Source: Terriglobia bacterium (lineage in GTDB: Bacteria; Acidobacteriota; Terriglobia; 20CM-2-55-15). From it: a DNA stretch of 64,000 nt. This document shows positions 37,241 through 63,956 of the stretch, piece by piece. The notes under the pieces are model-generated. The model was given only the letters and a program-made list of their open reading frames with translations, was not told the origin of the DNA and searched no databases. Location: contig CBDAOY010000005.1 of the NCBI GenBank assembly GCA_965198225.1, positions 320,001-384,000 of the forward strand, written 5' to 3'. Each line of letters begins with the position of its first letter. Within the stretch, counting starts at the first letter, position 1. Both the position numbers and the translations under genes were made by a program.

Positions 37241-37511
37241 GCAGCCCGTGGCAGAACTCTGCAGGGTCGCGCGCAGGGGTCTTCGGGTTGCAGGCGCGAA
37301 CAGAGGAGCGGAGCGATGATCATTCATCGTGACCGACGAGGGACAAAGCCTGCGGCCCGAACCCCCCTGCGCCCTTCGGGTTACGGCGAAACGGGGCCGT
37401 CTTCGTTGTCGCCGACTCCTCCCAATGAATGAGCATTGTTTCGTCCTCGCCTCCTAGAATCCGGCCCCGTTTGGCCGTAACGCGGCCCTGCAGAGTTCTG
37501 CCACCGGCTGC
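37241..37511. mobile_element. 271-bp MITE-like element with structured core
   Basis: 31-bp TIRs (29/31 match) GCAGCC(C/G)GTGGCAGAACTCTGCAGGG; TA on both sides; internal long hairpins. Confidence 0.85.
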
Positions 37512-38108
37512 TAGCGTTCGACGACGACGTTTGAGTCGGGCAGGACCAGGCGCAGGAGGCGGCCGTTGGAGTCGGTCGTAGCCTGTAGCTTCAAGTTGCT
37601 GCTGTCGAGTTCATAGGTCAGAGGTCAGATATCCGGTAGGACGAACCCGGACGCTGCCCAATTGCATCGCGCTGGGAACGAAAACCGGCAACTCCCCTCC
37701 CTCATTGCCGACTTTGTACAGCAGGAGCAGGTAATGGTGGAAGAAGTTGTTGTCCACGATCATGCCGTTCGTCGGAATACGAACGTCGTATGGAGTGCGT
37801 TGACCCTCGACGGTGTATTCGACTTCACTCACCGGGCTGGCAAGTCGAACACGAATCAGAGTGTCTTCGGACCGGTACTCATAAAAGGTCGGGTTGAGGT
37901 CTTTATCGAGCTCCATCCGGCTCCGAACGTCAACACTACTACCCTCGATCCTCAGCCTGGTGTGACCGCGTGCGATGAAACCGCTGCCGTCCTTCGAAAC
38001 GGAGAACTCTTCGGTTCCGACCCGTTCGCCGTCGACGCGCACCGTGAACCGCGCACTCTCGAGCTGGACTGGAAGAAGGAGCAAGAAGAGTAGCGACAGG
38101 GTGTTCAT
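37511..38108 (-). pseudogene. exported hypothetical protein frameshifted by a 7-bp duplication
   Basis: AGGTCAG twice at 37615-37628; removing one copy extends the ORF ...TGYLTYELDSSNLKLQATTDSNGRLLRLVLPDSNVVVER to TAG at 37511-37513. Confidence 0.75.
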
Positions 38109-38605
38109 GAATCTTCGATTGCCCGGACAATTTCCCGCACGACCTCGTCTGGTGCGAGGGGGTCGGTATCGATCCGTACCCGTGCCATTCTATACGATGG
38201 GCGTCGCCGCTCGAAGAGTTCCTCCACCCTCGAAGCGTCGGAAAAGAGTGGCCGGGTGCCGTCATCGGAGATGCGTGATCGAATCTGCGTCAGAGAAGCT
38301 TCCAGGTAGACAGACAGGCCATGAGATTCGACGAAGGTGCGGTTGTCGGGATCCACGTACGTTCCCCCGCCCAGGGCGATGACGCATTGCTCCTCTCCGG
38401 AAACCGTCCGGAGGAACCGGCTTTCGATCTCCCTGAAATACGGCTCACCGGATTCTTCGAAAATCCGTGTGATCGGACGAGCTTCCCAACGCACGAGCTC
38501 CTCGTCCAGATCCAGGAACTGCCATCCCAGTTCCCCGGCGACGAGCCGCCCCACTGTGCTCTTGCCCGAGCCCATGAAGCCGACCATGTACACTCTCGGT
38601 ACCAT
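38105..38605 (-). CDS. aroK: shikimate kinase
   Basis: GFMGSGKSTVG, GEPYFREIE, ALGGG, RPL. Confidence 0.93.
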   Translation of the reverse strand: MVPRVYMVGFMGSGKSTVGRLVAGELGWQFLDLDEELVRWEARPITRIFEESGEPYFREIESRFLRTVSGEEQCVIALGGGTYVDPDNRTFVESHGLSVYLEASLTQIRSRISDDGTRPLFSDASRVEELFERRRPSYRMARVRIDTDPLAPDEVVREIVRAIEDS

Positions 38606-38776
38606 CAAGCCGAGGTTATCCTGCCCTCGTGTCGCTGTCCAGAGCCGCTGATTCAGGCGCAAGAAACCAAAAAACGCGGAGAGAACGTCTCCCCGAAACG
38701 GGGAGGAGAACGTCTTCCCGCGTCTTCGTGGTGGCAGATTGTCGAAGCTGAACGCTGACGGCTGGATCGCCGGCAG

Positions 38777-39286
38777 CTAGGCCGCGCTCAGAGCCGAACG
38801 GATCCTGTAGTGCTCTCGACCTTCAGCCGACAACAAAACCCAGAAGGCATAGATGCCGATCGCTGTCCCAACCGGGAACTTGAAAAGCATGAACACGGCG
38901 GCAATGATCGCGATCACACGACCCCACGTCTGATAGTACAGGAGGCCCACGCCGGCAGCCGCCGTCAGGCCCGACACCACCACCATCGAGATCGCCACGA
39001 GCGAGATGATGGATGTCAGGAACACCCCGAGATCCATGTCGACTCCTGTGAAACCGAAATCGACAAACTCCAGGATCCGACCGGCGAGAAGAACCATCGT
39101 TGACAGCATGCCCATGAGTACGCCCGACCCGACGAGGAGCCAGGCCAGGATCTTTACATGGAGCTGCATGCTTTCGGGCGTTCGTACCCTCTTGGCAGGC
39201 GCCCCCGCCTCCGGTTGAGCTGCCCCGCAGCTACCGCAGAATCTGTGTTGAGGTTGGACCTGGGTTCCGCATTGTGGGCAATACAT
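38777..39286 (-). CDS. zinc-ribbon membrane protein
   Basis: MYCPQCG..FCGSCG followed by TM helices; GGAGG RBS. Confidence 0.85.
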   Translation of the reverse strand: MYCPQCGTQVQPQHRFCGSCGAAQPEAGAPAKRVRTPESMQLHVKILAWLLVGSGVLMGMLSTMVLLAGRILEFVDFGFTGVDMDLGVFLTSIISLVAISMVVVSGLTAAAGVGLLYYQTWGRVIAIIAAVFMLFKFPVGTAIGIYAFWVLLSAEGREHYRIRSALSAA

Positions 39287-39306
39287 GGGTGTTGCCTCCT
39301 GTGGAA

Positions 39307-39630
39307 GAAGTAGGCCGTAGGCCGTTGTCCGTTGGGCCCTCCGGGCCCCAGTCCGTTGGCCCTTGTCCGTTAGGGGTTAGTGTAAGAAAAAGAAAAACCC
39401 GCAACAGATCAACAAAGCGGCTCCGAGGGCCAGCAGACCGGTGTCCATCCGCTCCTCCGAGCGTCGCACCGCCTCAGCGCTATGTCCCAGTCCGTTTCCG
39501 CAGGCGGCACAAAAGCGATGGTGCGCCAGTACCGTCGAATCACATTTCGGACAATTCATTAATTTCTCCTGACGAGGAATGTCTGGCTTCGCCGACAACG
39601 GCCTACGGACAACGGCCTACGACCTACTTC
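39307..39630. repeat. heptamer-built inverted repeats flanking a small ORF
   Basis: gaagtaggccgtaggccgttgtccgt (39307) versus acggacaacggcctacgacctacttc (ending 39630). Confidence 0.75.
39377..39559 (-). CDS. small zinc-ribbon/TM protein (60 aa)
   Basis: MNCPKCD..HRFCAACG plus C-terminal TM; AGGAG RBS. Confidence 0.7.
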   Translation of the reverse strand: MNCPKCDSTVLAHHRFCAACGNGLGHSAEAVRRSEERMDTGLLALGAALLICCGFFFFLH

Positions 39631-39631
39631 C

Positions 39632-41002
39632 CTACCCCCTCTCTATCAACCTTATGTCCCCCCGACTGGTTTGAATCGTGATGCGGGGTCCGCCTTCGCC
39701 AAGTTCTCCAACGACCCTCTGGTCGCGTCCCGACGACACGCGGTCGATTCCTTCGAAATCCGAATCGAATGAGCCGGAGCGGGTCTGGGCATCGAGCGAA
39801 AAGTTCGAGGCCGCGGGCATCTCGATCCGGATGTCGGTATAGTCGCCGGTCAAGGAGATGTCGTTCTGCGGTGGCACCTCAAACAGGAGTCGAATGCCGC
39901 CGTGCCGGTTGGCGAGGTCGATCTCTCCGGTCGCGTTTCGTACAATGATGTCCTTGTAGGAACTCTCCACTTCGACCCGACCCGTCACATCCTCCAGGTC
40001 GACCGAGTTGTTACGCCCTTCGATCTGAACCCGGCCTCCGACTCTCTCGACGCTGACCAGGGAGTACTTGTTGTCGATCGTTGCGTCTCCCACGACTCCC
40101 GCCACGTGGACGCTTCCGTACTTGTTCTCGACGACAGCGTCACCGCCGATTTCGGTGACGGTTACGCTACCGTACTTGTTGACGATCCCGACGCTCCCCG
40201 AGATGTTCTCCGTGACGACAGGACCGTAGCCGTCCTCGATCCGGACACTGCCGGTGACGCCTCGTATCGTGGTGCCGCCGTGGCGATTCTCGACCGCCTG
40301 GTCCCCCCTCAGGCCCGTGACGCGAACCAGGCCGTACTTGTTGTTGACCGTGAGTGACGATTCGGCGGGTACTTGGATCGTGAGGCTGGTCTTGAAGCGC
40401 CGTCGGACCGATGAGCGAAGGTCGTCGCGATTCGACTGGACCACGTAGGAGTCACCCCGATCGGTGATCGTAAAGTACATTTCCGGCTCGAGGCGTTCGG
40501 CCTGCTCACGGCTTGTTGCCCGTACGGTCTTTTCGATGTTGACGATGATCCTGTCGCCCTCTCCAGGTTCGACCTCCACCGAACCGTAGATATTGTGGAT
40601 CTCGACGCTCCGTCCGGGCACGGCTTCAGCCTCGAGGTTGGCTGAGAATTCGTAGTTGTCCCCAAGGAGGTCAAACAGATCGAAATCTTCGCCCAGGTTG
40701 ATGTCGATGAACCCCAGGTCGGAAGTGAGGTGAGCGGCGGCAGTCAGAGCGCTGCCGACGAAGAGAACCAACACCAGCAGGGCGACCTCACCCCCGGAAA
40801 ACAGTCGTCGATTCTCGCCCTTCAATCGGTAGTAATCCACGACCTTCAGCATCCCCCAGGCGATGATCAGGACCGGCCAGTACAGGGCCAGTCCCTGCCA
40901 GATCGGGATGTCATAGCCGAGGTTTCGGAGCAACAGCACCACTCCGACGGCGATCAATATGATCGCCCAGAAGATGGTGCCCAGGCCACGACGCGGACTC
41001 AT
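39632..41002 (-). CDS. LiaF-like TM domain plus DUF4097 beta-repeat protein
   Basis: IFWAIILIAVGVVLLLRN..YWPVLII; NKYG repeats; ITIQTSRGDIRL. Confidence 0.85.
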   Translation of the reverse strand: MSPRRGLGTIFWAIILIAVGVVLLLRNLGYDIPIWQGLALYWPVLIIAWGMLKVVDYYRLKGENRRLFSGGEVALLVLVLFVGSALTAAAHLTSDLGFIDINLGEDFDLFDLLGDNYEFSANLEAEAVPGRSVEIHNIYGSVEVEPGEGDRIIVNIEKTVRATSREQAERLEPEMYFTITDRGDSYVVQSNRDDLRSSVRRRFKTSLTIQVPAESSLTVNNKYGLVRVTGLRGDQAVENRHGGTTIRGVTGSVRIEDGYGPVVTENISGSVGIVNKYGSVTVTEIGGDAVVENKYGSVHVAGVVGDATIDNKYSLVSVERVGGRVQIEGRNNSVDLEDVTGRVEVESSYKDIIVRNATGEIDLANRHGGIRLLFEVPPQNDISLTGDYTDIRIEMPAASNFSLDAQTRSGSFDSDFEGIDRVSSGRDQRVVGELGEGGPRITIQTSRGDIRLIERG

Positions 41003-41003
41003 C

Positions 41004-41396
41004 TCAATCCTCCTTTCCCGGGACCGATGACGAGCTTCCTTCAGCGTCCTTCGATTCCGGGTCCGCCTTCTCGACAGGCTTTGAAGCTTCGCTTCCCCTA
41101 CCGCCGTAGCCTGCCGACTGACGAGGTGCGTTGGTCTGAACGGGCTGGCCAGGTCCCGAAGACGGTACTGCCGATGCCGGTTTCGGAGCCGACGGCGGGG
41201 AGGACGGCGGCAGCGGTGATTTGGCAGCCGTTGGGCCTTGTACCGGGGACGGGCGCTGGAGGTAGTCGACGATCTTGACGACGCCGATGACGATCAGAAT
41301 AACCGGCCACATCCGCCCGAACTCCAACCGTGTCGGGTAGAGGTTGTTCATCAGGAGCAGAACACCCAGGGTGATCAACACGAATGCGCCGGTCAT
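41004..41396 (-). CDS. LiaI/LiaF-like (DUF5668) membrane protein
   Basis: LITLGVLLLMNN..WPVILIVIG plus Pro/Ser-rich tail. Confidence 0.8.
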   Translation of the reverse strand: MTGAFVLITLGVLLLMNNLYPTRLEFGRMWPVILIVIGVVKIVDYLQRPSPVQGPTAAKSPLPPSSPPSAPKPASAVPSSGPGQPVQTNAPRQSAGYGGRGSEASKPVEKADPESKDAEGSSSSVPGKED

Positions 41397-42064
41397 CTGT
41401 CTGCCTGCCCTTCATCCGGAGTCTTTGTTTCGCCCTTCTCCTGCTTGCTCCAAATCAGCCACACACCGATTGCGATCAACGCCACGGGCCAGAATTCGAA
41501 GACCTGACGCAGTTGAAAGAACCGGAAGTTGTCCATCAGGAACAACGCGCCTAGAACGACGAGGGCTACGCCACCCCAAAGCTCCTTATTCTCGACGCCG
41601 GAGACCTGTTCGTGAAGGCGATCGATCGGCGTTTCCAACTGTATGCCTTGAGTTTCCAGGCGTCTCTTCTTGGCCGTATAGTACGCTTCGAACGGCATGT
41701 AGATGTAGAACCCGGTGATCAACAGGCCGAACAGGGGCTCAAGCGAACGGGCCGAATCTACGATGCTGATCAAAACTCCGAAAATGATGATGTGAACGGC
41801 GGCTTTGAAGAATTCCCCGTTGTAGATGGCTCCAACTCCCGGGATCAGGCCGAGAGCAAATGCGGCTCCCGGGCTCTCCCCGCCGACACTGGACGGCGGT
41901 GCCGGCGGGCGGGCGGCCGGTCCCCCTCTCATCCTCTCCCCAAGACAGGTCTCGCAGTAGACACTCCCCTGCACATCTCGTTTGCACGAGGGACAGAGGG
42001 CTCGGCCGCATGTAACACAGAAAGCCACACTCTCAGCGTCAGCGTGGTAAGCGCAATTCATCAA
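41393..42064 (-). CDS. B-box zinc finger plus LiaF-like membrane protein
   Basis: CAYH..FCVTCGRALCPSC..YCETC; IPGVGAIYNG; FWPVALI. Confidence 0.85.
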   Translation of the reverse strand: MMNCAYHADAESVAFCVTCGRALCPSCKRDVQGSVYCETCLGERMRGGPAARPPAPPSSVGGESPGAAFALGLIPGVGAIYNGEFFKAAVHIIIFGVLISIVDSARSLEPLFGLLITGFYIYMPFEAYYTAKKRRLETQGIQLETPIDRLHEQVSGVENKELWGGVALVVLGALFLMDNFRFFQLRQVFEFWPVALIAIGVWLIWSKQEKGETKTPDEGQADR

Positions 42065-42561
42065 GAACTCTCCCTCAACCGCTCGATCTGGGACTGAATC
42101 TGCGTGACCAGCGGAGCGCGGTAATAAAGCCGAACAGCCCCGTCGTATGCATCGTTGACGAGATCACCAGCACTCCGATAGATCGCTGCCGGGCTCCGCA
42201 AGTCGGCCAGGCTGGGAGCTATTCCGACGGTGTTGGAAATCCAACCCAGCACCATCATTGAGGTGAAAACGGCCATCGCGGTTCTGGTATCCAGGACCCA
42301 ACGTCCGAGTGCCCCCAGCGTGTCCCTCCAGGTTTCGCGTTCCTTCCGCGGGGTGTTTGCCAGAATTCTGGTCACGAGCCACTCGGGAGCTTCGAAAACG
42401 GGGAAACTCCGGCCCCAATCGAGGACCTCCTCCATGCTCTCGTGGAGTCGCCGACACCTATCACACGAAGCGAGATGAGCTTCGAAGGAATGGTGCTCGC
42501 CGGGCGGGAGCAGTCGGTCCAGATAGTCGGAAAGCCTGGCTTCGAGAGTCGCGCAATTCAT
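42061..42561 (-). CDS. zf-HC2 anti-sigma factor
   Basis: LSDYLD..AHLASCDRC; TM segment. Confidence 0.88.
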   Translation of the reverse strand: MNCATLEARLSDYLDRLLPPGEHHSFEAHLASCDRCRRLHESMEEVLDWGRSFPVFEAPEWLVTRILANTPRKERETWRDTLGALGRWVLDTRTAMAVFTSMMVLGWISNTVGIAPSLADLRSPAAIYRSAGDLVNDAYDGAVRLYYRAPLVTQIQSQIERLRESS

Positions 42562-43130
42562 AACTGATCCCTCAATCGCCCCAGGACCAGAGCGAGTTCG
42601 CCGCGGCCTCGATTGATTCGTGACTTGACCGTCCCGATCGGGACATCCAATAAGCCGGACATTTCATCATAAGTAAAACCCTCCAGATCCCTCAGGATCA
42701 CGGCTTCTCTCAAGTCCTGGCTCAGCCGGAGCAATCCCTGGTGGACCAGGTCGGAAAGCTCCCGCTTCCGAAGAGCCTCCCCAGGGCTGTCATAGCGGGC
42801 CGGGTTTTCCTCGACCCGCTCGAACTCGGCATCGATCGCGTCGGTCCTGGAACGCTCGGTCTTGAACTTCCGGTAGTGGTCGATGATATGGTTTCGACCA
42901 ACTCGTATCAACCATGTAACCAGGGCTCCGGATTCCGGCCGGTAGGAGGCCAAAGTGCGGTAGACCTTGAGGAAGATCTCCTGAGCCAGGTCTTCTGCCT
43001 CATCGAACCGTCCCGTGTAGCGGTACGCCAGGTTGTAGATCCGCTGGTGATGCTGCCGTACTATGGACTCCCAGGCGCCATGCTCACCCTCCAGGCATTG
43101 CCTCACCAGTTCGGCTTCCGGTCGGTCCAA
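42558..43130 (-). CDS. ECF sigma-70 factor (SigW/RpoE-like)
   Basis: AEDLAQEIFLKVY, VPIGTVKSRINRGR. Confidence 0.95.
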   Translation of the reverse strand: MDRPEAELVRQCLEGEHGAWESIVRQHHQRIYNLAYRYTGRFDEAEDLAQEIFLKVYRTLASYRPESGALVTWLIRVGRNHIIDHYRKFKTERSRTDAIDAEFERVEENPARYDSPGEALRKRELSDLVHQGLLRLSQDLREAVILRDLEGFTYDEMSGLLDVPIGTVKSRINRGRGELALVLGRLRDQL

Positions 43131-43170
43131 CTAGGGGCTCCATCCGCTTCGCCGGCACTCACAATGGGTT

Positions 43171-43197
43171 AACGTAGTCACCCGAAGAAATGTTTCA
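43171..43197 (-). promoter_or_regulatory. putative ECF autoregulatory promoter
   Basis: TGAAAC-N17-CGTT on the minus strand, close to the SigW-type TGAAAC-N16-CGTA consensus. Confidence 0.6.
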
Positions 43198-43233
43198 GGA
43201 ACGTTAAACCTTTTTGAGATAATTCCTACCGAC

Positions 43234-44196
43234 ATGGGCCGGAAACTATTGGTTTTTTTGACCTTGGCGGCTTTTGCGGTGGCTCTGTACTTGCTGTTCC
43301 GCCGGGACTTCGATTCGCAGCTTTTTCTCGAGAGTGTCACGAACGTTCGACCCATATGGCTGGCCGCTTCGACCGTGCTGACTTTCGTCGGTTACGTCGT
43401 CCGTGCTCTTCGCTGGCAGATCTTGCTCATTTCAATGAAGTTAATCAAAATGACGTCCCTCCTCAGCGCTACAATTCTCGGTTTCAGCGTGATCTACCTG
43501 CTGGGCAGGGCCGGAGAATTCGCCCGACCGGTTTGGATTGCGCGCCGCGAAGGCGTCGCCATGGCCGGGTCTTTCGCGACTATCGCCGTCGAGCGCGTCT
43601 TCGACACCCTGATGCTGATCGTGTTCTTTGCCGCAACCGTCGGCGTCGTTCGGGTGGAAACTGGAGCGATCGCCCTGCTGACGACGTCCGTCTGGCTGCT
43701 TCTGGCTCTGTCCTCAGTCGCGCTTCTCGTGTTCATCCTGTTCCGCGCGCACGTCTCGTCAATCGCGAAGCGCCTCCCGTTCGAGCGGCTGGCGGCCACG
43801 CTCGAACGGTTTGCGGACGGCCTGGCCATCACGGGCAGCTGGCGAAACCTGGGACTTGCAACAGTATACTCGCTGCTGCTGTGGCTGGGGATTGCGCTAC
43901 AATTCTGGCTGATGCTGTTCGGGCTGAACCTGGAGTTCACCTTCCGGGCGGCGACGCTGGTACTGGTCGCCTCCGCAATCGGATCGATCGCACAGGTACC
44001 GGGGATCGGTGGAGGCTTCCAGGTCGGATTCATTTTCTGCCTGACAACATTTTTCCTGGTGCCACTGGAAACCGCGGTTGGGGCCTCATTGGTGGCCTGG
44101 TTCTTTACCTACGTTCCGACTATTGTCGTCGCAGCAATCTACATGACGTGGAAAGGCGTATCGGCGCGGGACCTGATCACACCAGAGCCGGCCTGA
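43234..44196 (+). CDS. lysylphosphatidylglycerol synthase TM-domain (flippase-like) protein
   Basis: RALRWQ, GRAGEFARP, ERVFD, PGIGGGF. Confidence 0.85.
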   Translation: MGRKLLVFLTLAAFAVALYLLFRRDFDSQLFLESVTNVRPIWLAASTVLTFVGYVVRALRWQILLISMKLIKMTSLLSATILGFSVIYLLGRAGEFARPVWIARREGVAMAGSFATIAVERVFDTLMLIVFFAATVGVVRVETGAIALLTTSVWLLLALSSVALLVFILFRAHVSSIAKRLPFERLAATLERFADGLAITGSWRNLGLATVYSLLLWLGIALQFWLMLFGLNLEFTFRAATLVLVASAIGSIAQVPGIGGGFQVGFIFCLTTFFLVPLETAVGASLVAWFFTYVPTIVVAAIYMTWKGVSARDLITPEPA

Positions 44197-44210
44197 CAGT
44201 TCCATAAGCT

Positions 44211-44669
44211 ATGAAATGCCCTTTTTGCGGCCACTTGAGAGACAAAGTGGTCGATTCACGCGAAAGTAAGGAAGGCGATGCGATCCGGCGGCGCCGGCAG
44301 TGTCTGGAATGCAGCCGTCGCTTCACCAGCTACGAAAGAATCGACGAGATCCCCTACATGGTCATCAAGAAGGACGGGCGCCGCGAACGCTTCGAACGCC
44401 AGAAGGTGTTATCGGGCATACTGAAAGCGTGTGAGCGCCGGCCGGTCTCGATGGTTCAGCTCGAGGCTATCGCGGACAAAGTCGAGCTCCTTGCCCAGGA
44501 ATCACCCGTCCGCGAGGTTTCTACCGGGACGGTCGGAGAGACGATCATGACGGACCTGAAGGATCTCGACAAGGTGGCCTACGTCCGGTTCGCGTCCGTA
44601 TACCTCGACTTCAAGGACGTTCAGGAATTCATGGCGGAGTTGAAAGACCTCCTCAAGAGCCGGGACTAG
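44211..44669 (+). CDS. nrdR: transcriptional repressor NrdR
   Basis: MKCPFC..KVVDSR..IRRRRQC; [12 protein letters not shown]. Confidence 0.97.
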
Positions 44670-44677
44670 GCACAGGC

Positions 44678-45049
44678 ATGGTCTACTTCCAGTTCGAGCC
44701 CGAAGAGCGTTTTCAATCCACCTGGTCTCCGATCGTCGACGTCTTCGAGCGGCCGGCCGCAATCATAGTTCGGGTGGAGCTGCCCGGAGTGGAAAAGAAC
44801 GACATCAAGCTGAGCTGGCGTGACGGAGTTCTTACGATCGCCGGCACCAAGCGGCGCCCGACCGCCGAACAGGGGAGTTGCCGATACCTGTGCATGGAGC
44901 GGAACTACGGCCACTTCCGGCGAGACATCGCGATCGGCAGCGAAGTTGATTATTCGAAATCCTCGGCGGAATTACGGGACGGGCTCTTGAATATTCAGCT
45001 CCCCAAACTGATGGAGCGGGACGGGGAGACGGTTATTCCGATCGAGTGA
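44678..45049 (+). CDS. Hsp20 small heat-shock protein
   Basis: VELPGV, ERNYGHFRR, DGLLNIQLPK. Confidence 0.92.
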   Translation: MVYFQFEPEERFQSTWSPIVDVFERPAAIIVRVELPGVEKNDIKLSWRDGVLTIAGTKRRPTAEQGSCRYLCMERNYGHFRRDIAIGSEVDYSKSSAELRDGLLNIQLPKLMERDGETVIPIE

Positions 45050-45140: not shown

Positions 45141-47657
45141 ATGGAAATTATCAGCAACGAACCAGAAGAGACGCAGGAAGACCAACAGGTTTCCATACCC
45201 GAGACGCTGCCGGTTTTACCGCTGCCGGACGTTGTTGTCTTCCCATACATGATCGTCCCGCTCTTCGTGAACCGGGAGCAGTCCATCCAGGCTGTCGATC
45301 AATCGCTCGCCGAGAACCGGATGGTGCTGGTGGTGTCTCAAAAGACACCGGACGTCGAGGAGCCCACCGCGGACGACCTCTACCCATTCGGAACCGTATC
45401 GCTGATCATGCGCATGCTGAAGCTTCCCGACGGTCGAGTGCGGATCCTCGTCCAGGGCTTCGCGCGGGCGAGTGTCGAGTACCTGTCCGGCCCGGAACCC
45501 TTCCTCCAGGCCAAAGTGTTCCCGGAGGCCGAATTCACGCCTAGACAGGAGTCCCTGGAACTGGAAGCGTTGATACGGAGCGTCAAGTCGGCGCTGGAGC
45601 GGGCGATTTCTCTGGGCAAGAACATCTCCCAGGACATCGTCATCATCGCTGCAAACCTCGAAGACCCCGGTCGATTGGCCGACCTGATCGCCTCGAACAT
45701 GGAGCTGCGCATCGAAGAGGCCCAGAATGTCCTGGAAATCACCGATCCGGTTGATCGACTCCGGCAGATCAACACAATGCTGGCAAAGGAGCTGGAAGTC
45801 CTCCAGATTCAGCACGACATCACGACACAGGCAAAGGGCGAGATCGACCGGACTCAGCGGGAGTACTACCTCCGCCAACAGATGAAGGCGATACAGCAGG
45901 AACTGGGTGAAGGCAACGAACTGCTCGAGGAGATCGAACAGTACCGGGAAAAAGTTCGCGAGGCGAAGATGCCCGAAGAGGCAGCCGAAGAAACCGAGCG
46001 CCAGATCGGAAGGTTGGAGCGGATGCACCCCGATTCGGCCGAGACTGCCACCTTGCGCAATTACCTGGACTGGATGGTCGGCCTACCCTGGTCCACCTCA
46101 ACCCCAGACAACCTCGACCTGAAGAAGGCACAGAAGATACTCGACGAGGACCACTATGGCCTCGAGAAGATCAAAGAGAGGATCGTCGAGCACCTCGCCG
46201 TACGCAAACTGAAAAAGAAAACCAAGGGGCCCATCCTCTGCTTTGTGGGCCCCCCCGGGGTCGGCAAGACGTCGCTGGGCCGGTCGATCGCCCGGGCGCT
46301 GGGCCGCAAGTTCGTCCGGCTCAGTCTCGGCGGCGTCCACGACGAAGCTGAGATTCGGGGACACCGGCGCACTTACGTGGGAGCGATGCCGGGTCGGGTC
46401 GTCCAGAGCATCCATCAAGCGGGCACGAAAAACCCGGTGTTCATCATGGACGAAGTCGACAAGATCGGGGCTGATTTCCGGGGAGATCCGTCCTCCGCCC
46501 TGCTCGAAGTACTGGACCCGGAACAGAATTCTTCTTTCCGCGACAACTACCTCGGCGTCCCATTCGATCTGTCGGACGTGATGTTCATCACGACCGCAAA
46601 CACGCTCGACCCGATCCAGCCGGCATTCCGGGACCGAATGGAAACCATACGTTTGAGTGGTTACACAGAAGAAGAAAAGATCGAAATCGCCGAACGGCAT
46701 CTGATCCCGAAACAACTGGACGAGCACGGGCTGACGAAAAAACATCTCGAGTTCAGTGAGTCGGCCCTGCGGGCCGTGATCAGCGGGTATACGCAGGAAG
46801 CCGGTCTGAGAAACCTGGAACGAGAGATCGCGAGCGTCTGCAGAAAGGTTGCGCGCCAGGTCGCGATGGGCCAAACACGCTCACGCAGGCTGAATCCGAA
46901 GCAGGTCGACAAGTATCTTGGACGCCCGAAGGTTTTCCAGGACGAGCTCTTGAAGAACGACGAGATAGGCGTCGCGACCGGCCTGGCGTGGACCGCAACG
47001 GGCGGGGACATTCTCTTTGTGGAAGCCACGGCCATGAAGGGCAAGGGTGGGCTGGCTCTGACGGGACAACTCGGCGACGTAATGAAAGAGTCCGCCCACG
47101 CGGCGATGAGCTACGCGCGCTCCCATGCGACAGACTTCGGAATCGACGAGGACTTCTTCGCCGGCAACGACATCCACGTCCATGTACCCGAGGGGGCAAT
47201 TCCGAAGGACGGACCGTCGGCCGGTGTGACGATGGCAACGGCGATGATCTCGATGCTCGTCGGGAAGCCGGTTCACCGGAACATCGCGATGACCGGAGAG
47301 ATCACTTTGCGCGGAGAGGTTCTTCCGGTCGGAGGCATCAAGGAGAAAGTTCTCGCCGCAAGGCGAGCCAAGATCCGTTCGGTCATCCTCCCCGCACTGA
47401 ACGAGCGTGACCTTGAAGACGTCAACGAAGAACTGCGGCGGGAAATGCGGTTCGTCTTTGTCGGCCGTATCCACGAAGTGTTCGCCGAGGCCATCATCAC
47501 CGAGCCTAAGCCCCTCCCCAAGCGGAGCACTACGCGCAGGAAAACCGCAAAGAAACAGCCGACAAAGAAGACGACGAAGAAGAAAGCCGCAAAGCGGTCG
47601 ACGACGGCGTCAAAGAAATCTGCCACGAAGCGGGCAACGAAAAAGAGACGCCGCTAG
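45141..47657 (+). CDS. lon: Lon protease with Lys-rich C-terminal tail
   Basis: [37 protein letters not shown]. Confidence 0.97.
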
Positions 47658-47677
47658 TGGCCTGTAACAGGTCACTA
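47655..47677. mobile_element. collapsed footprint of the 63.7-kb element (fused termini only)
   Basis: TA-GTGGCCTGTAACAGGTCAC-TA matches both ends of 63688-63956. Confidence 0.65.
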
Positions 47678-56627: not shown

Positions 56628-56710
56628 CTAGCCTGACGAAGCTGTTCGGGCTTACGAAGAACGTCTGAAGACGATTCACAAGAACTGACGAAGCTTTCTT
56701 GTCTTTCGAA

Positions 56711-56783
56711 CTTTTCTGCTCAGCAACCACCCGGGGACAGGGCTAGCCCTGTCCCCCTCACATTCGCTCTCTCACGGAACACC
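56711..56783. repeat. family E unit
   Basis: cttttctgct...cacccggggacagggctagccctgtccccctcacattcgctctctcacgg. Confidence 0.8.
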
Positions 56784-56881
56784 TGGCGGGCCATACAAAA
56801 CTCCGCGTCGGGCCGTCGTTTACAAACCAAAAGGCGGCCGGTTGGCCGCCTTTTCTTCCCGTGCTGGGGTTTCGAGTCAGG

Positions 56882-57274
56882 CTAGTCGCCCGCGACTCCT
56901 TCGTAGGCCTCGACGGCTTCGTCGTACTTATCGTGGAGCTGGATGCCGAAGTATTCTTCGACTTGGGACGTCGGATACATGGCGATAGCATCCCAAGCCA
57001 TTCGCTCGCACACGTTCACACATATCTTGCATCCGATGCACTCGTCGAAGCGGACCTGCACGGGCTCGATGATGACACGCACGTTATCGGAGACGTCGCG
57101 CGGAACATGCTCGATGCAGTCCACCGGGCAGAACGGGATACAGGCTTCACAGCCGGTGCAGTTGTCGGGGTTGACCACTGCAAGGATCTTGGGCTTCTTT
57201 TTCTTCCGGGTGATCTTCCCCGGAGCTTCCGGGATGATTGCAGTCGGATTCGCTTTCTTCTTATTGACGGCCAT
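56882..57274 (-). CDS. 2x[4Fe-4S] ferredoxin
   Basis: CTGCEACIPFCP and CIGCKICVNVC. Confidence 0.9.
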   Translation of the reverse strand: MAVNKKKANPTAIIPEAPGKITRKKKKPKILAVVNPDNCTGCEACIPFCPVDCIEHVPRDVSDNVRVIIEPVQVRFDECIGCKICVNVCERMAWDAIAMYPTSQVEEYFGIQLHDKYDEAVEAYEGVAGD

Positions 57275-58472
57275 CTATCAAGTCCTTCAATCGATTAAGC
57301 CCCATTGTATCTCGAAAACCGACGATGCGCTCGACCGCTTCCCCGATTTGACTATTCGGTGTGGACGCCCCTGACGTCAACCCGATCGTCTGAGGTCCAT
57401 CGGCAAGCCAGTGGCGAGTCGTTGTCTCCTCCATCCGCCCCGTCACCTTGTGCTGAATCTCCTCGACGTCGAGTATCGACCGGGCGTCCTCGATGTGGAA
57501 GACCCGCGTAAACTCCGATGCGATCCGAGCCAGATTGTTGGTGTTTGAACTGTTGTAGCCGCCGATGACGATCATCAGGTCGATCGGTTCTCTGCGGAGC
57601 GCCTTCATCGCGTCCTGCCGATCCTGAGTCGCGCTACAGATCGTGTCGAAGGAAACGTAACGCTGATCCAGCCCCTCCTTCCCATGTTTACGGATCAGCG
57701 CAAGGCGCAACATCTCTGCGATCTCGAGCGATTCGGAACTCAGCATAGTCGTCTGATTGGCCAACCCGACACGCTTCAGGTGATGGTCCGGATCGAACCC
57801 GTCGGATGCAGCCTTCCGAAACTTGTCAAGGAATGCCTTCCGACTGCCGCCTCGCTCGATGTAGTCGCAAACGTCGGCGGCCTCGTCCTTGTTTCGCACG
57901 ATCAGGTAATGGGCACCGGGATGCAGGGAGGTCCTGGAAAACGTCGCACGCGTCTCTTCGTGCTCGAACTTCCCATGGATGATCGACGTGATCCCGTCGG
58001 CCGCGTAACGCTCGACGTTCTTCCAGACGTTGAGAACTGAACCGCAGGTGGTGTCGACGACGACACAGCCCTTTTCGGCCAGCACATCCAACTCGCTGCC
58101 GGGGACTCCGAAGGCGGGCACGATGACGACGTCTTCCGCAGTTACAGGACTGTACTTGTCCGGATCAGTCAGGAACTCGATTCCGGACTCTTTCAGTTCG
58201 TTGTTTACGAAAGGATTGTGGATGATCTCGCCGGTCAGAAAGATGCGGCGGTTGGGAAACTTGGCAACCGTCTCGTAGGCGTATTCGACGGCCCGCTCGA
58301 CGCCGTAACAGAACCCGAATTCGTTCGCCAGCCGGAACGTGAGGTCACCGACCTCGAGCCGGAAACCCTGCGCTCTCATCAGGTCGACGATCTGGCTGCG
58401 GTAGTTTTCCTGGAGTTGAGGACGGACCTGAGAACGTAGTCCAAACCCCTTTTGGAAGTACGTCTGGCCCAT
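57261..58472 (-). CDS. ispH: 4-hydroxy-3-methylbut-2-enyl diphosphate reductase
   Basis: FGFCYGVERA, IIHN, DTTC, NQTT, DTICSATQDRQ, SSNT, SGASTP. Confidence 0.95.
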   Translation of the reverse strand: MGQTYFQKGFGLRSQVRPQLQENYRSQIVDLMRAQGFRLEVGDLTFRLANEFGFCYGVERAVEYAYETVAKFPNRRIFLTGEIIHNPFVNNELKESGIEFLTDPDKYSPVTAEDVVIVPAFGVPGSELDVLAEKGCVVVDTTCGSVLNVWKNVERYAADGITSIIHGKFEHEETRATFSRTSLHPGAHYLIVRNKDEAADVCDYIERGGSRKAFLDKFRKAASDGFDPDHHLKRVGLANQTTMLSSESLEIAEMLRLALIRKHGKEGLDQRYVSFDTICSATQDRQDAMKALRREPIDLMIVIGGYNSSNTNNLARIASEFTRVFHIEDARSILDVEEIQHKVTGRMEETTTRHWLADGPQTIGLTSGASTPNSQIGEAVERIVGFRDTMGLNRLKDLIDGRQ

Positions 58473-58565
58473 AAGTCAACGATTGTAACACACCACTGAT
58501 TGTGCTAATTTCGGGCTTCTCCTGCCTTTGAGGAGCCCCGTTTTTAAGGTTCGAGGGACCCCAGT

Positions 58566-59558
58566 TTGGCGAAGAAACACGCTGCGATCACATCCGTCTC
58601 ACACTTTCTGCCCGAAGGCCGACTCACCAATCAGGACCTGGAAAAGATGGTCGACACGACCGACCAGTGGATCCTGGATCGGACCGGTATCAGCGAACGA
58701 CGAATCGTCGCAAAAGGACAGGCAACCAGCGACCTGGCCGCGGGAGCCGCTCGCCAGATTCTCATGGACCGGGGGATTGGGCCCGAAGAAATCGATCTGA
58801 TCATCGTGGCGACTGTGACGCCGGACATGTTCTTTCCGTCTACAGCCTGCGTCATGCAGGAAAAGATCGGCGCCACAAACGCCTGGGGTTTCGATCTGCT
58901 CGGGGCTTGTTCCGGGTTTCTCTATGCGCTGACCACCGGCGCGCAGTTCATCGCGAACGGAAGCCACGAGAAGGTGCTGATCGTGGGCGCCGACGTCATG
59001 AGTTCGATCATCGACTTCGAGGACCGGGCAACCTGTGTGCTCTTCGGCGACGGGGCGGGTGCGGTACTGCTGGAACCGTCCGATAGCCCCAACGGCGTGC
59101 TCGACTGGATTCTCCGCAGCGACGGCGGCGGCGGACAGTTTCTCTACATGCCCGGCGGGGGGAGCCTGAATCCGTCGACCACCGAAACGGTCGGTAAGAA
59201 AATGCACTATGTCCACCAGAACGGCCGTAACGTGTTCAAGTATGCGGTAAAGGGCATGGTCGAAGTCTCACAGGCAATCCTCGAACGGAACAACCTGAAG
59301 ATGGAAGACCTGAAGCTGTATGTCCCGCACCAGGCCAACCTCCGAATCATCAAGGCCGCCGCGGACAAACTTCAACTGGACGAATCGCAGGTGGCGATCA
59401 ACATCGACCGCTATGCGAACACGACGGCCGGAACCATACCGATCTGTCTGTCCGAAGCCGTTGACGACGGCCTGGTCCTGGACGGCGACATACTCTTGCT
59501 GGCGAGCTTCGGCGCAGGATTTACCTGGGGCAGTTTGCTCCTCCGCTGGGGGGCTTGA
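58566..59558 (+). CDS. fabH: beta-ketoacyl-ACP synthase III
   Basis: [34 protein letters not shown]. Confidence 0.96.
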
Positions 59559-59559
59559 T

Positions 59560-59650
59560 AGGCGATCAGCCGTCGGCGATCAGCTGTCAGCTCAATACGA
59601 TGGAACTATCGTTCGTTTCCGAAGGAGCTGACGGTGAGCGCCGAGGGCGC
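59560..59650. repeat. family G heptamer inverted repeat
   Basis: ggcgatcagccgtcggcgatcagctgtcagc ... gctgacggtgagcgccgagggc. Confidence 0.55.
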
Positions 59651-59782
59651 GCCTGATCCCCTCCTTCAGAGAGCACGATCCTCAAGCATGAGGATCAAGC
59701 GCCTAAAGTTATTTCAAAGAAAAACCGAAATAATACTGAATGACGTATTTTTGACAGCCCTGTCAAATCTATTGTTATGTAA

Positions 59783-59916
59783 GGCGGCATTAGAAAACGC
59801 AGCCGAGCTTTGATCTAAAAAGAGATACTTTTCCGATACCGTCCCTGGCTGAGAAAAGCAATCATAGATCGCAAAGCTTGGCACCAAAGCCCTCGCACAG
59901 CGAGGGCTTTTTATTT
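59783..59916 (+). ncRNA. candidate small RNA
   Basis: AT-rich upstream region with TTGACA at 59751, extended stem 59803-59881, intrinsic terminator, no credible ORF. Confidence 0.45.
59886..59916 (+). terminator. intrinsic terminator
   Basis: AAAGCCCTCGC-ACA-GCGAGGGCTTT followed by TTATTT. Confidence 0.85.
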
Positions 59917-60076
59917 GTCCGAGTATCGAACTCCAGGACAAGATACCCGCTCTTTCCCTTCAACTCCGTCAACTCACGGCCTGCTGCTACCGCTATACAG
60001 CCAATTCCTCTGTCAACATATTGTCACTCGGGAGGCACGCGACGGGTGCGGATGAAACCTGCAAATCGAATGGAAT

Positions 60077-60301
60077 CTATACCTTGGACTCTGACAGCCA
60101 GGATCCGAACTGCCAGACATCCTTCAACACCGCCGACAATGGAGGTCGATGGTGGCCATAGGCAGTCTGGAAACGCCATGCCAGGTACTTTCGCGTTGGA
60201 ACGGGCAGGAACGGGAAACGTCGGTACCAATCGCCAGGTACGATCCGGAAGTAGAAGCCAACGAGCGCTCGGGCGATCGTCAAATGCCGCACAAGGCGCA
60301 T
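60077..60301 (-). CDS. small hypothetical protein
   Basis: 74 aa, WYRRFPFLPVPTRKYLAWRFQTAYG; divergent from fxsA. Confidence 0.6.
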   Translation of the reverse strand: MRLVRHLTIARALVGFYFRIVPGDWYRRFPFLPVPTRKYLAWRFQTAYGHHRPPLSAVLKDVWQFGSWLSESKV

Positions 60302-60315
60302 GCTATCATAAACTC

Positions 60316-60711
60316 ATGAAAATATTCGGCATCCTGCTGTCGATGTTCATCGTGATCCCGCTGGTGGAGTTCGCACTTCTAATCGAAATCGGATCTCGTT
60401 TGGGGACCGTGCGGACGCTGATGCTCATCTTCGGGACCGGCGTCGTGGGCGCTTACCTCGCTCGACTCGAGGGACTGCGGATTCTTTACCGCATCCAACG
60501 GGAATTCCAACGGGGATCAATGCCGAGCGAGCAGCTTTTTGACGGTATTCTCGTCCTGCTCGCCGGAGTCGTTCTGATCACTCCCGGACTGCTGACCGAC
60601 ATCGGCGGCTTGATCCTGCTGATTCCCGTGACCCGATACCCGATCAAGGCCTTCATCAAGCGTCGCGCGCAGTCCTGGCTCTCCGGCAGCCACGTTCGTA
60701 TCTCCATGTAG
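60316..60711 (+). CDS. fxsA: FxsA family membrane protein
   Basis: PLVEFALLIEIG..G, LITPGLLTDIGG. Confidence 0.9.
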   Translation: MKIFGILLSMFIVIPLVEFALLIEIGSRLGTVRTLMLIFGTGVVGAYLARLEGLRILYRIQREFQRGSMPSEQLFDGILVLLAGVVLITPGLLTDIGGLILLIPVTRYPIKAFIKRRAQSWLSGSHVRISM

Positions 60712-60810
60712 TTGAGCCACTCGCCGGCGCCAGTTTGACGATTCCCACCCGGTTCCTATAACATCCAGCCGTTTCGTCCCCACTTCAATAACACAGATGA
60801 GGAGCAACCC

Positions 60811-62412
60811 ATGGCTTCCAAACGACCGTTTCTCCTGACCGAGCTCGGCGCCGCATTTGCGGTCCTCTCGCTGGTAGCTCTCTGTTTGCCGCTGCTGGGG
60901 CAGACATCTCCGTTCACGGTCTCTCACGTCAAGGAAGCATCGATCGCCGATGTCCACGCCGCAATGACCGCGGGTGAACTGACGGCCCAGGATCTGGTGC
61001 AGATGTACCTGGATCGAATCGAGGCGTACGACAAGCAGGGGCCGGCCATCAACGCGATCATCATGATCAACCCGAGGGCCATGGACCGCGCCGCAGAATT
61101 GGACGCGAAGTTCGCCGAGTCAGGCTTCGTGGGTCCGTTGCACGGGATTCCCGTCATCATCAAGGACAACTACGACACCCACGACATGCCCACGACGAAC
61201 GGAACGCTCGCACTCAAGGATTCCATACCTCCCGATGACGCCTACCAGGTCCGAAAACTGCGAGAGGCCGGAGCGATCATCCTGGCCAAATCCAACATGG
61301 CGGAGTTCGCGATGAGCGGTGGTTTCTCGGTCAGCTCCATCCTGGCCGGGTACACGCGGAACCCCTACGACACGAGTCGGGCGACGGCCGGCTCCAGTGG
61401 CGGCACTGCCGCAGCGATTGCTGCGAATTTCGCGACCGTCGGCCTGGGCACCGACACCGGTAGTTCGATCCGAGGTCCCGCCTCGCATCAGAGTCTGGTC
61501 GGGTTCCGATCGACGGTAGGGCTCACGAGCCGCGACGGCATCATCCCACTCAATGCCGCACGCGATGTGGGAGGGCCGATCGCTCGCAGCGTTACCGACG
61601 CGGTGGTCGTTTTCGAACTGATCGCGGGGCACGATCCGGCGGATCCGATAACGGCCGCAAGCGAGGGAAAGGTGCCCGACAACTACAGCCAGTTTCTCGT
61701 CGAGGACGGTCTGAAGGGAGCTCGCCTCGGGGCTTTCCGGCAGCTATTCCCGGAAGACGACACGGACCCCGAGGTCTTGCGGCTCATGGACCAGGCCCTG
61801 GAAGACATGAAAGCCGCGGGCGCCATCATCATCGACCCGGTCCGGATACCGGACCTCGAAGAGATGCGAGAGTCGTTCAAGGAGGGAACCAGCCGAATGA
61901 AGTACGACTTCGAACGGTATCTCGCCACGCTGGGACCCGACGCGCCCTTCAAGACCCTGGACGAGATCGTCGAAACGGGCGACTTCCACCCCTTCTTGAG
62001 AAGGAATCTGAACCGCGCCCTGGAACGGGCCAAGGAGAATCCCGGTCCCCCCGAAGAGAATCCGGACTACCAGCACAACATGGAGGTCGAAAAGCAGCTT
62101 CGGGAAGCCGTTCTCAAAGCGATGGAGGACAACTCGGTCGAAGCGCTGATCTACCCGACGTTCCGGTATCCCCCGCGACTCATCGGTGACGAAAACACGA
62201 CGCCGCTGGGCGCGAACAGCAATCCACTCTCGCCTCCGACGGGCTTCCCCGCCTTCTCCGTCCCGATGGGCTTCACCGTCAACGGCCTGCCGGTGGGCTT
62301 GCAGTTGCTGGGGCGCGCCTTCGACGAAGGGACCCTGATTCGGCTGTCCTACGCCTACGAACAGGCCACGAAACATCGCCGCGCTCCCCGGAGCACGCCG
62401 CCTCTCTGGTAG
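60811..62412 (+). CDS. amidase signature family protein, exported
   Basis: GPLHGIPVIIKDN, GSSGGTA, GTDTGSSIRGP. Confidence 0.93.
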   Translation: MASKRPFLLTELGAAFAVLSLVALCLPLLGQTSPFTVSHVKEASIADVHAAMTAGELTAQDLVQMYLDRIEAYDKQGPAINAIIMINPRAMDRAAELDAKFAESGFVGPLHGIPVIIKDNYDTHDMPTTNGTLALKDSIPPDDAYQVRKLREAGAIILAKSNMAEFAMSGGFSVSSILAGYTRNPYDTSRATAGSSGGTAAAIAANFATVGLGTDTGSSIRGPASHQSLVGFRSTVGLTSRDGIIPLNAARDVGGPIARSVTDAVVVFELIAGHDPADPITAASEGKVPDNYSQFLVEDGLKGARLGAFRQLFPEDDTDPEVLRLMDQALEDMKAAGAIIIDPVRIPDLEEMRESFKEGTSRMKYDFERYLATLGPDAPFKTLDEIVETGDFHPFLRRNLNRALERAKENPGPPEENPDYQHNMEVEKQLREAVLKAMEDNSVEALIYPTFRYPPRLIGDENTTPLGANSNPLSPPTGFPAFSVPMGFTVNGLPVGLQLLGRAFDEGTLIRLSYAYEQATKHRRAPRSTPPLW

Positions 62413-62635
62413 CCGATGAGAAAACCTCGGCCGGACGTGTGAAGTTCAAGAGCTGTCACACGTCCGGCCGGCGGTCCCGTCATACGCCGCCACCTTCAGA
62501 TCAGCCCCGAAATCCAGCAGGCGGACCGACCAAGAGTCGGTTGATCGACTCACTTCAGCTTTGACTGTTGGAATCGGTATCATTTTCGTCATGGCGCTTT
62601 GCGTGCGTCTCGACATGGAACGAGGAGCGGATTCT

Positions 62636-63688
62636 GTGAGCACTACCCCGTACTTCTCACCCGACTACAACACGGCACGCGATCGGTTTCGCAAGGCGGT
62701 CGAGCGGGAGGGAGGACGGCTCGATGCGCTCGAACTAGATGCCGAAGGACCAGAGGGAACGGATCTGACGATCGACATTGCCTGGTTCGGGTCGGTGAAC
62801 CCCAAACGCGCCCTCGTCCACTCGTCCGGACTGCACGGGGTGGAGGGATTCGCGGGCTCCGCCATCCAACTGCGGCTCCTCGACCAAATGCCCGCCATTG
62901 CTGAAGGTGACGCGATCGCTATAGTCCACATTCTGAATCCCTACGGTATGGCCTGGCTCCGCCGCTTCAACGAGAACAGCGTGGACCTGAACCGTAATTT
63001 TCTAGGCGAAGACGAGCGCTACAGCGGGACGCCTGAGGCATACCCCGGGCTGAACTCGTTCCTGAATCCGGCCAGCCCGCCTTCGCTGGACCTGTTTTCG
63101 CTTCGCGTCGCATGGCTCATCGCACGGCACGGCCTGGCCGCGATGAAAGAAGCAATCGTCAGCGGCCAATACGAGTACCCGAAGGGACTTTTCTTCGGCG
63201 GAAAGCGGCTGGAACAGGGGGCGCAATTGTACCTCGAATGGGTGCGAAAGCATCTGTCGACGACGGAGCGTGTCCTTGCGGTGGATATTCACACGGGTCT
63301 CGGAAAATCCGGCGAAGACACCCTGCTCGTAGACCGCAACGTGCACGCACGGGCACGTCGTCTGTTCGGCAGACGGGTCGCTCCCCTCGATGCGGATCGC
63401 AGCGTCGCCTACGAGACCCGCGGTGGTCTCGACATGAGGGTTACTGATCTGCTACCCAATGTCGACTTCGTCGGCCAGGAATTCGGGACATACGGCCCGA
63501 TTCATGTCCTCCACGCTCTTCGTGAGGAAAACCGCTGGCACCACTACGGCGGGGGCGGCATCGATCATCCGGTCAAGATAGGGTTGAAGGAAGCCTTCTG
63601 CCGGGACCAGGAGTCCTGGAGGCAGAAAGTGCTGACCCGTGGATGTGAGATGTTTGAGCAGGCAGTCGGTGTGGTGTTCGGATCCTAG
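62636..63688 (+). CDS. DUF2817 / M14-like metallopeptidase
   Basis: SGLHGVEG, NPYG..RRFNENSVDLNRNF, DIHTGLG, EFGT; GAGGAG RBS before GTG. Confidence 0.85.
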   Translation: MSTTPYFSPDYNTARDRFRKAVEREGGRLDALELDAEGPEGTDLTIDIAWFGSVNPKRALVHSSGLHGVEGFAGSAIQLRLLDQMPAIAEGDAIAIVHILNPYGMAWLRRFNENSVDLNRNFLGEDERYSGTPEAYPGLNSFLNPASPPSLDLFSLRVAWLIARHGLAAMKEAIVSGQYEYPKGLFFGGKRLEQGAQLYLEWVRKHLSTTERVLAVDIHTGLGKSGEDTLLVDRNVHARARRLFGRRVAPLDADRSVAYETRGGLDMRVTDLLPNVDFVGQEFGTYGPIHVLHALREENRWHHYGGGGIDHPVKIGLKEAFCRDQESWRQKVLTRGCEMFEQAVGVVFGS

Positions 63689-63956
63689 TGGCCTGGAACA
63701 ATGCTATCGGTACCATCGCCGATGGGTCTTGCGGGCGAGGTGGAGGAGGGAGACGGAAAGCGATGCTCTTTCATCGGTGACGGCTTCCGACAAAGAGATC
63801 GCCCACAACCCCCATCGGCCCGAAGGGTTCGGCCCAACGGCGCCGTCTTCGGTGTCGTAACGCCCTCGCAATGAAACAGCATTGGCTCGAGCGTCACTCC
63901 TAGAATCCGACGCCGTTCCGCCGAACGCTGGTACCGATAGCACTGTTACAGGTCAC
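63688..63956. mobile_element. 269-bp MITE-like element with structured core
   Basis: 28-bp TIRs (25/28 match) ending TGCTATCGGTACCA; TA on both sides; core homologous to 37241-37511. Confidence 0.85.

Follow-up and report, generated by a model that had tools for sequence, protein, structure and literature searches.

A family of probable IS630-type miniature elements with a covarying two-armed core in a Terriglobia genome

Among described repeats, the closest to the family considered here are the RUP elements of Streptococcus pneumoniae and the Correia (NEMIS) elements of Neisseria. RUP is a 107-bp MITE (a miniature transposable element with inverted repeats) proposed to be moved by IS630-Spn1; it is non-autonomous, intergenic and multicopy, inserts at TA, and has terminal inverted repeats (TIRs) resembling those of a resident IS630-family insertion sequence (IS), as described in the sections of PMC2229807 drawn on here. 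The present family, which shares these traits, is represented twice in a 64,000-nt stretch of the genome of a Terriglobia bacterium (the window: positions 320,001 to 384,000 of contig CBDAOY010000005.1, assembly GCA_965198225.1). Compared with RUP by description only, it differs in its length of 270 bp, its Y-shape, a core conserved across genera and families, its several IS630 end types and its preference for CTAG. Correia elements likewise duplicate TA, carry TIRs of about 24-26 bp, form a stable stem-loop and are frequently co-transcribed with adjacent genes. However, they are 100-155 bp long, have reported roles involving IHF and RNase III, and are given no known transposase partner in the same sections of PMC2229807. 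A candidate partner IS exists for one end type of the present family, and the likeness to Correia is architectural only.

Two further groups are comparable in part. Stowaway-like and fold-back MITEs of the Tc1/mariner kind target TA and have long TIRs or fold into hairpins over their whole length, with short TIRs on the autonomous element (PMC3814204, in the portion used). Those MITEs usually share TIRs and differ inside, whereas the present family shares its inside (arm 2 above all) while its ends and inner stem diverge. The REPINs mobilized by RAYT proteins are selfish repeats whose hairpin is maintained by compensatory changes, with selection acting on the replicating lineage as its unit, as set out in the part of PMC3116915 available. 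They measure about 100 bp, do not duplicate their target and rely on a Y1 (IS200-like) enzyme that works on single strands, whereas in the present family TA is duplicated and the termini are of the DDE type. No description of the present family was found in full-text literature, though it may be listed in the catalogue of PMC11602168, a large census of prokaryotic MITEs seen here in part.

Two elements of one mobile family

The two window elements and the parts of the first are as follows.

37239-37240 and 37512-37513: TA duplication flanking copy 1
37241-37511 (+ strand): MITE copy 1, subfamily cl4, with 'type A' ends GCAGCCCGTGGCAGAA...
37241-37271 (+ strand): left half of the closing stem P1 of copy 1, pairing with 37481-37511
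37273-37370 (+ strand): arm 1 of copy 1, with basal stem 37273-37295 / 37348-37370
37372-37380 (+ strand): central 3-bp hairpin CCC-NNN-GGG of copy 1, at the three-way junction
37381-37480 (+ strand): arm 2 of copy 1, with blocks CCGTCTTCGTTGTCGC, CAATG-N6-CATTG and CTCCTAGAATCCGG
63686-63687 and 63957-63958: TA duplication flanking copy 2
63688-63956 (+ strand): MITE copy 2, subfamily cl13, with 'type B' ends GTGGCCTGTAACAG...

An earlier note on this DNA had drawn attention to both elements, with their TA flanks and colinear core, and its coordinates hold, as do its arm boundaries, ATG-N6-CAT caps and conserved blocks. In the fold predicted for each copy, a long closing stem carries two arms and the 3-bp junction hairpin; the closing inverted repeats measure 28-31 bp. 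In P1 of copy 1, the outer 16 nt or so form a transposase-type terminus and the inner part is a covarying, fast-evolving extension. The apex of arm 1 in this copy consists of the hairpin CGATG-ATCATT-CATCG and the block GACAAAG, a region swapped for other sequence in cl8, cl1 and further subfamilies; the stem of arm 2 joins 37380-37399 with 37462-37481. Predicted free energies are -175.7 and -134.6 kcal/mol for copies 1 and 2 (z-scores -11.98 and -7.19), with none of 200 dinucleotide shuffles folding as well, and the opposite strands fold comparably (z-scores -10.29 and -8.66). A covariance model scores copy 1 at 263.7 bits on the plus strand and 114.7 on the minus strand, and copy 2 at 258.7 and 104.5 bits. 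Both elements are real and far from chance.

A search of the host genome (6.41 Mb in nine contigs, about 60% G+C) by BLAST and iterated nhmmer yields 172 loci, including 118 full-length copies. Clustered with a 13% distance cut, these 118 form 15 subfamilies, of which cl13 has 40 copies, cl4 18, cl8 16, cl14 15, cl3 13 and cl1 six; one further subfamily has two copies and eight are singletons. Copies within the larger subfamilies are close to one another, with a median of seven and a minimum of one pairwise difference in cl13, and a median of eight and a minimum of three differing positions in cl4. No transposase gene lies within the elements, which are overlapped by short open reading frames (ORFs) alone, these differing between subfamilies in a comparison made by eye. 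A small peptide encoded in arm 2 was considered and set aside: short frames are present on both strands, and subfamily differences, judged by eye, are mostly non-synonymous.

Beyond this genome, the family was followed with a covariance model, R1, built from 35 representatives (277 positions, 61 pairs), which finds at least 150 matches in the host itself. It is positive in 18 of 23 genomes of the same family and in both genomes of one other family; the 14 genomes examined from nine further families are all negative. A wider sample of the class, 150 genomes in all, contains 33 positives, which come from 7 of 13 families. When one genome per species was scanned for an exact pattern, at least 42 stretches were returned. 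Among the scan matches listed, a single one, likely by chance, is in Paraburkholderia; the other 41 are in metagenome-assembled genomes (MAGs) under the labels Terriglobia, Acidobacteria or Candidatus Versatilivorator. The listed loci hold 40 full-length elements. Near-canonical copies occur in other genera and in one other family (289 bits in genome G040, 262 bits in G051), suggesting horizontal spread, although contamination of the MAGs may also account for them. In distant families the same architecture is kept with mostly different sequence. Phage carriage was rejected, as viral contigs gave no match to the family. One and the same 310-bp variant is present on short contigs from two MAGs of different genera (L050:2290-2599 and L057:1153-1462), where the immediate flanks also match (about 6 bp per side shown); this could reflect a shared mobile replicon or a binning artefact.

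That these are mobile elements, and not simply a freely covarying closing stem, is established by nested insertions. Two copies lie within other copies, and in each case the left flank, TA and right flank joined together fit uninterrupted elements (19 and 8 of them) at all 104 columns; these exact empty sites therefore prove the TA duplication directly. The search for empty sites in relatives, which the earlier note had proposed, succeeded in part: in three same-genus genomes both flanks of copy 1 align and the element is absent, but the intergenic DNA at this locus is too diverged to define the exact site. Genome-wide, TA stands on both sides of 74 of the 118 full-length copies and CTAG on both sides of 58. 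IS630 elements prefer CTAG targets.

The host genome also contains a candidate source of the transposase. A resident IS630-family IS of 1128 bp, present in three identical copies with ends CTAGTGGCCTGTAAC, codes for a 349-aa protein with helix-turn-helix domains and a DDE_3 domain (E 1.6e-25). Type B MITEs have only their terminal 15-18 nt in common with it. Ends CTAGTCTCCTGTCCCAG, resembling those of cl11 and cl15, belong to a second IS630 relative (44% identical), and further IS630 lineages of related genomes (proteins 38-72% identical) have ends resembling other MITE forms:

End TAGTGGTCCCCGTCAAAC: like MITE subfamily cl2
End CTAGTGTGGTGTCCCAGC: like the forms in genomes G004 and G008
End CTAGTATAGTGTCTCGTAAATAAC: like Versatilivorator-type ends
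End CTAGTGTCCTGACAT: like MITE subfamily cl1

The proposal that one core is carried by several transposase end types is consequently borne out, in that the ends resemble different IS630 lineages; the matching of each TIR type to an autonomous IS was achieved for type B, through the resident 1128-bp IS, and not for type A. The two TIRs had also been described as unrelated, which does not hold: type A and type B agree at 10 of the first 17 bases after TA, and a terminal skeleton CTAG..CC.G...C is nearly invariant over all representatives, with end columns A3, G4, C8, C9, G11 and C15 invariant or nearly so among 30-35 representatives. On sequence comparison, types A and B are variants, related to each other, of a single IS630-type terminus. 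Taken together, the elements are very probably non-autonomous MITEs of the IS630/Tc1-mariner type.

Several other relationships to IS were considered. Derivation of the core from an IS interior is ruled out, the match between MITE and IS being confined to the ends, and an antisense action on transposase mRNA is ruled out because complementarity never extends beyond 8-11-mers. The one 1.7-kb candidate for the type A partner, in the related MAG L057, appears by eye to be a frameshifted IS256-like transposase inserted into a MITE; the IS256-like gene (L057:5086-6505), its frameshift likewise judged by eye and its family assigned without a family-library scan, lies beside or within a type A MITE. 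A 363-aa IS630-family transposase has at least 69 matches in G003, at least 43 in G015, at least 19 in G021 and 37 in G005, an IS bloom across several genera of the family.

Insertion at stop codons

By crude ORF and third-codon-position G+C (GC3) gene calls, 105 of the 118 full-length copies are intergenic, with flanking genes in tandem at 74, divergent at 25 and convergent at 19, which mirrors the genome background. The median distance to a gene 3' end is 8 bp, 54% of measured distances lie within 20 bp, and 35 of the 118 copies (about 30%) lie exactly against a predicted TAG stop. Since the first base of the element is G and its last is C, insertion into C-TA-G rebuilds a TAG stop, which fits the proportion of copies located exactly on gene ends. 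CTAG is approximately seven-fold depleted in this genome (3394 observed against about 23070 expected), and of 5033 crude gene calls, 1763 end in TAG. The CTAG target is by itself enough to explain why copies lie at stop codons. No orientation is favoured, with 33 copies co-oriented and 41 anti-oriented to flanking tandem genes, 20 against 15 relative to the abutting gene, and 45 against 45 relative to GC skew.

Both window copies illustrate this arrangement.

62561-63688 (+ strand): 375-aa ORF upstream of copy 2, whose TAG stop at 63686-63688 is formed by the duplicated TA and the first G of copy 2
37512-37514 (- strand): CTA, which reads as a TAG stop on the minus strand and consists of the element's last C and TA; ancestral stop of the gene to the right of copy 1

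The second assignment rests on alignment with three same-genus genomes and on frame arithmetic. The gene in question (37512-38108, minus strand) has an in-frame TGA at 37611-37613, a position occupied by CGA in the three relatives, beyond which the frame continues for 33 codons to the ancestral TAG at 37512-37514; the TGA is due either to nonsense mutation or to misassembly. Directly to the left of copy 1 (37150-37236) lies a hairpin repeat of about 85 bp, CTCTTTCAACACGAAG...CTTCGTGTTGAAGAGAC (-44 kcal/mol), which has only a few partial copies in its own genome and gives dozens of hits, on both strands, in the same-genus genome G001.

Covariation and the history of the arms

The earlier note had pointed to compensatory stem changes between the two copies, and these are upheld over many copies and genomes. 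In a set of 30 sequences less than 90% identical, which come from at least 10 further assemblies besides the host genome, 1812 cells were scored and 91.7% of them pair; 49 of 61 pairs have compensatory changes on both sides, and the covariation score of 0.464 (0.148 in shuffled alignments) is reached by none of 500 shuffles; when partners are slid by one to three columns, at most 43.6% of cells pair. Changes on both sides affect 23 of 25 pairs in helix 1 (the closing stem), 12 of 16 in helix 2 (arm 1) and 14 of 17 in helices 4-5 (arm 2). Helix 3, the junction hairpin, has an invariant CCC/GGG stem and a free 3-nt loop, which is CCCTTCGGG or CCCGAAGGG in the window copies and GGA, TGC, AAA or TAC in others; the reverse-complement switch read into this hairpin from the two window copies thus reduces to free variation of the loop. 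Conservation is uneven, with identity of 0.55 in the inner closing stem and 0.77 in the outer termini, and of 0.79 and 0.62 for paired and unpaired positions of arm 1, as against 0.81 and 0.76 in arm 2, which is the best conserved part.

The pairing looks more like that of DNA than that of an RNA. By cells, 1611 pairs are Watson-Crick, 51 are G·T and 61 are A·C, and distinct stem hits within subfamilies comprise 53 G·T and 67 A·C. Mutation density is similar in paired and unpaired positions (0.0199 against 0.0173 in cl13, 0.0166 against 0.0236 in cl4), so that in young copies stems decay like loops. Compensated double changes are nonetheless found within subfamilies, numbering 23, of which 14 are in the closing stem, with halves 210 nt apart. 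Because the pairing is symmetric between strands and almost purely Watson-Crick, orientation shows no polarity and the pairing decays once a copy has inserted, DNA acting in cis is the most likely level of action, and we infer that the fold is kept by lineages still multiplying and not by the host copy by copy. Of the selected RNA or single-stranded DNA fold that had first been envisaged, the RNA version is not favoured by these data. The elements match no known Rfam family: against Rfam 15, the only hit in the window at gathering score is a cobalamin riboswitch (RF00174, 27812-27979, + strand, 87.7 bits, E 2.8e-20), and 12 representatives give no hit at E <= 5. A promoter scan of copy 1 and adjacent DNA returned no sigma-70-like site, and terminator-like sites there are weak only. 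An outward promoter was considered because TAGAAT in a conserved block is like a -10 hexamer; it has no properly spaced -35 and is given low odds.

In each window copy the two apical hairpins are complementary at 11 of 12 nt, exactly as first noticed, and were thought to change together as a kissing loop or rod. That co-variation does not extend past the two copies. Both apical hairpins are present in only 12 of 30 representatives, and cognate loops are no more complementary than shuffled partners (3.92 of 6 against 3.88 +/- 0.19), on which ground a kissing loop is rejected. Arm-arm pairing under selection as a rod is rejected on duplex energy, that of the whole apex being -33.5 kcal/mol for cognate and -34.1 kcal/mol for non-cognate pairs, with 3622 of 5000 permutations at least as good. 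The apex of arm 1 instead aligns with the reverse complement of that of arm 2 (scores of 11.5-19.5 against 3.8-5.7 +/- 1.5-2.1 for shuffles), and no alignment between the apices is obtained in direct orientation; the arms are therefore old inverted duplicates, which accounts for the 11/12 complementarity.

Shortened forms record how elements lose these parts. In one-arm forms the junction coincides with a short repeat where the lost arm had its base, and the same junction arose in two subfamilies. Arm 2 is the part kept in 168-nt forms with other ends in other genera (G004, G008). In addition, 23-bp palindromes consist of two type B termini fused at their common CTGTWACAG; there are 24 in the genome, 16 of them flanked by C...G, and one lies in the window:

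47655-47677 (strand not applicable): 23-bp end-to-end palindrome TAGTGGCCTGTAACAGGTCACTA in CTAG...CTAG, most likely left by an internal deletion, or else a minimal element

Together, one-arm forms and palindromes point to frequent hairpin loss of the slippage type.

A fold-back scaffold and its alternatives

The best overall explanation, to which we assign a probability of roughly 0.6, is that these are IS630-type MITEs with a DNA-level fold-back scaffold. IS630-family transposases would cut and paste the elements in trans, and the core, comprising the long closing stem, the two inverted-duplicate arms and the 3-bp junction hairpin, would serve as the scaffold: intrastrand or cruciform pairing may bring the two transposase-binding ends together and so favour mobilization. 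The blocks of arm 2, including the internal end-like CTAGAATCCGG, may act as an accessory site; of the 9 positions in the skeleton of the element's own terminus, 8 recur in block CTAGAATCCGGCGCC, a likeness seen by eye and carrying no statistics. The narrower claim that the core itself has a cis role at the DNA level is put forward tentatively, at somewhat less than even odds, from the symmetry of pairing, the lack of polarity and constraint at the level of lineages.

Several observations weigh against this explanation. Intrastrand structure is not known to be a requirement of IS630/Tc1-mariner transposition; the DNA-level role is deduced from symmetry and the lack of polarity, and its mechanism is a prediction. 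One-arm forms of 167 and 187 bp exist at several loci and predominate among the forms seen in G004 and G008, which shows that neither arm is individually required. The element sequence is not symmetric, its two strands scoring about 260 and about 110 bits, and this asymmetry, together with the conserved unpaired blocks of arm 2, makes a strand-specific reader possible, whether RNA or protein. No IS with type A ends (TAGCAGCCCGTGGC) was found in the host genome or at 30 IS630 loci of relatives, in a search that was not exhaustive, and the context statistics depend on the crude gene calls described above.

It is unlikely, though by no means negligible, that the fold has no function at all and is simply inherited fold-back DNA, its complementarity made and refreshed by mutation in palindromes (through, for example, template switching or abortive gap repair) and by arm-swapping recombination, with arm 2 seeming conserved only through young or horizontally spread subfamilies. 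Pairing that is Watson-Crick, symmetric and unprotected in inserted copies speaks for this reading, as do mosaic and chimeric copies such as cl6, which joins the left end of one type to the right half of cl13. Recurrent arm loss at short repeats, the end-to-end remnants and the near-canonical copies that other genera and one further family carry also agree with it, and long-TIR MITEs are proposed to originate through repair in the part of PMC3814204 available. However, constraint is uneven inside the same elements, the inner closing stem being far less conserved than arm 2 with its unpaired blocks, and the architecture lasts in distant families where the sequence has mostly changed. Moreover, compensated double changes are commonest in the closing stem, whose distant halves are hard to reconcile with short-range template switching. 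A functional structured RNA carried as cargo, whether a stabilizer in the 3' untranslated region (3'-UTR), a terminator, an RNase III site as proposed for Correia/NEMIS or a small RNA, is improbable. The proximity to gene 3' ends and the 35 copies touching a stop codon, by which many copies must be co-transcribed, speak for it, as do the very stable folds on both strands, the conserved loop-like blocks and the RNase III precedent of Correia elements (PMC2229807, sections cited above); yet the CTAG target alone explains the stop-codon location, orientation to genes is unbiased, G·U is not commoner than A·C, stems are unprotected in young copies, and the Rfam and promoter searches described above gave nothing in favour of an RNA.

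An RNA-guided or single-strand system is extremely improbable. The loose resemblance to IS110 bridge RNAs raised by the earlier note, namely two arms with large internal loops, is the one point in favour of a guide RNA. Bridge RNAs of IS110 lie in a non-coding end of the IS, beside the gene for its DEDD recombinase, and their loops are complementary to target and donor. The resemblance is outweighed by the TA duplications, by inverted termini that a DDE_3 IS has in identical form, by the small size of the elements, which have host genes on both sides and no recombinase inside (no profile search for recombinases was made), and by loop sequences that are conserved across loci and not locus-specific. 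Membership of IS200/IS605 or REPIN/RAYT, which would entail an unduplicated target, a strand bias relative to replication and a Y1 partner, is contradicted by the TA duplication, the DDE_3 partner and the absence of leading- or lagging-strand bias (the even split relative to GC skew).

A bolder reading, which we regard as quite unlikely, is that arm 2 and the closing stem form a structured module that acts in cis, is under selection at element level and hitch-hikes between transposase systems across the bacterial class. The module might be a single-stranded or cruciform DNA 'transposition enhancer' with an internal end-like site for transposase, or a 3'-UTR RNA acting in either orientation. 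In the enhancer version, a cut-and-paste MITE would be picked up by several IS630 transposases and then amplified, and the hitch-hiking unit would, if this is true, be a conserved, covarying module of roughly 100 nt.

MITEs are usually viewed as short-lived, species-specific debris with a drifting interior. The present family differs in that one fold and one nearly unchanged arm are kept across at least seven families of an Acidobacteriota class, while the termini track different IS630 transposases and the elements land on TAG stops and rebuild them. If the fold matters for mobilization, amplification that depends on structure could be put to the test here in a cut-and-paste element. Otherwise, the family would be a warning that strong covariation alone does not mean an RNA gene, and for the poorly cultured Acidobacteriota of soil it would still be a useful marker of genome dynamics and horizontal exchange.

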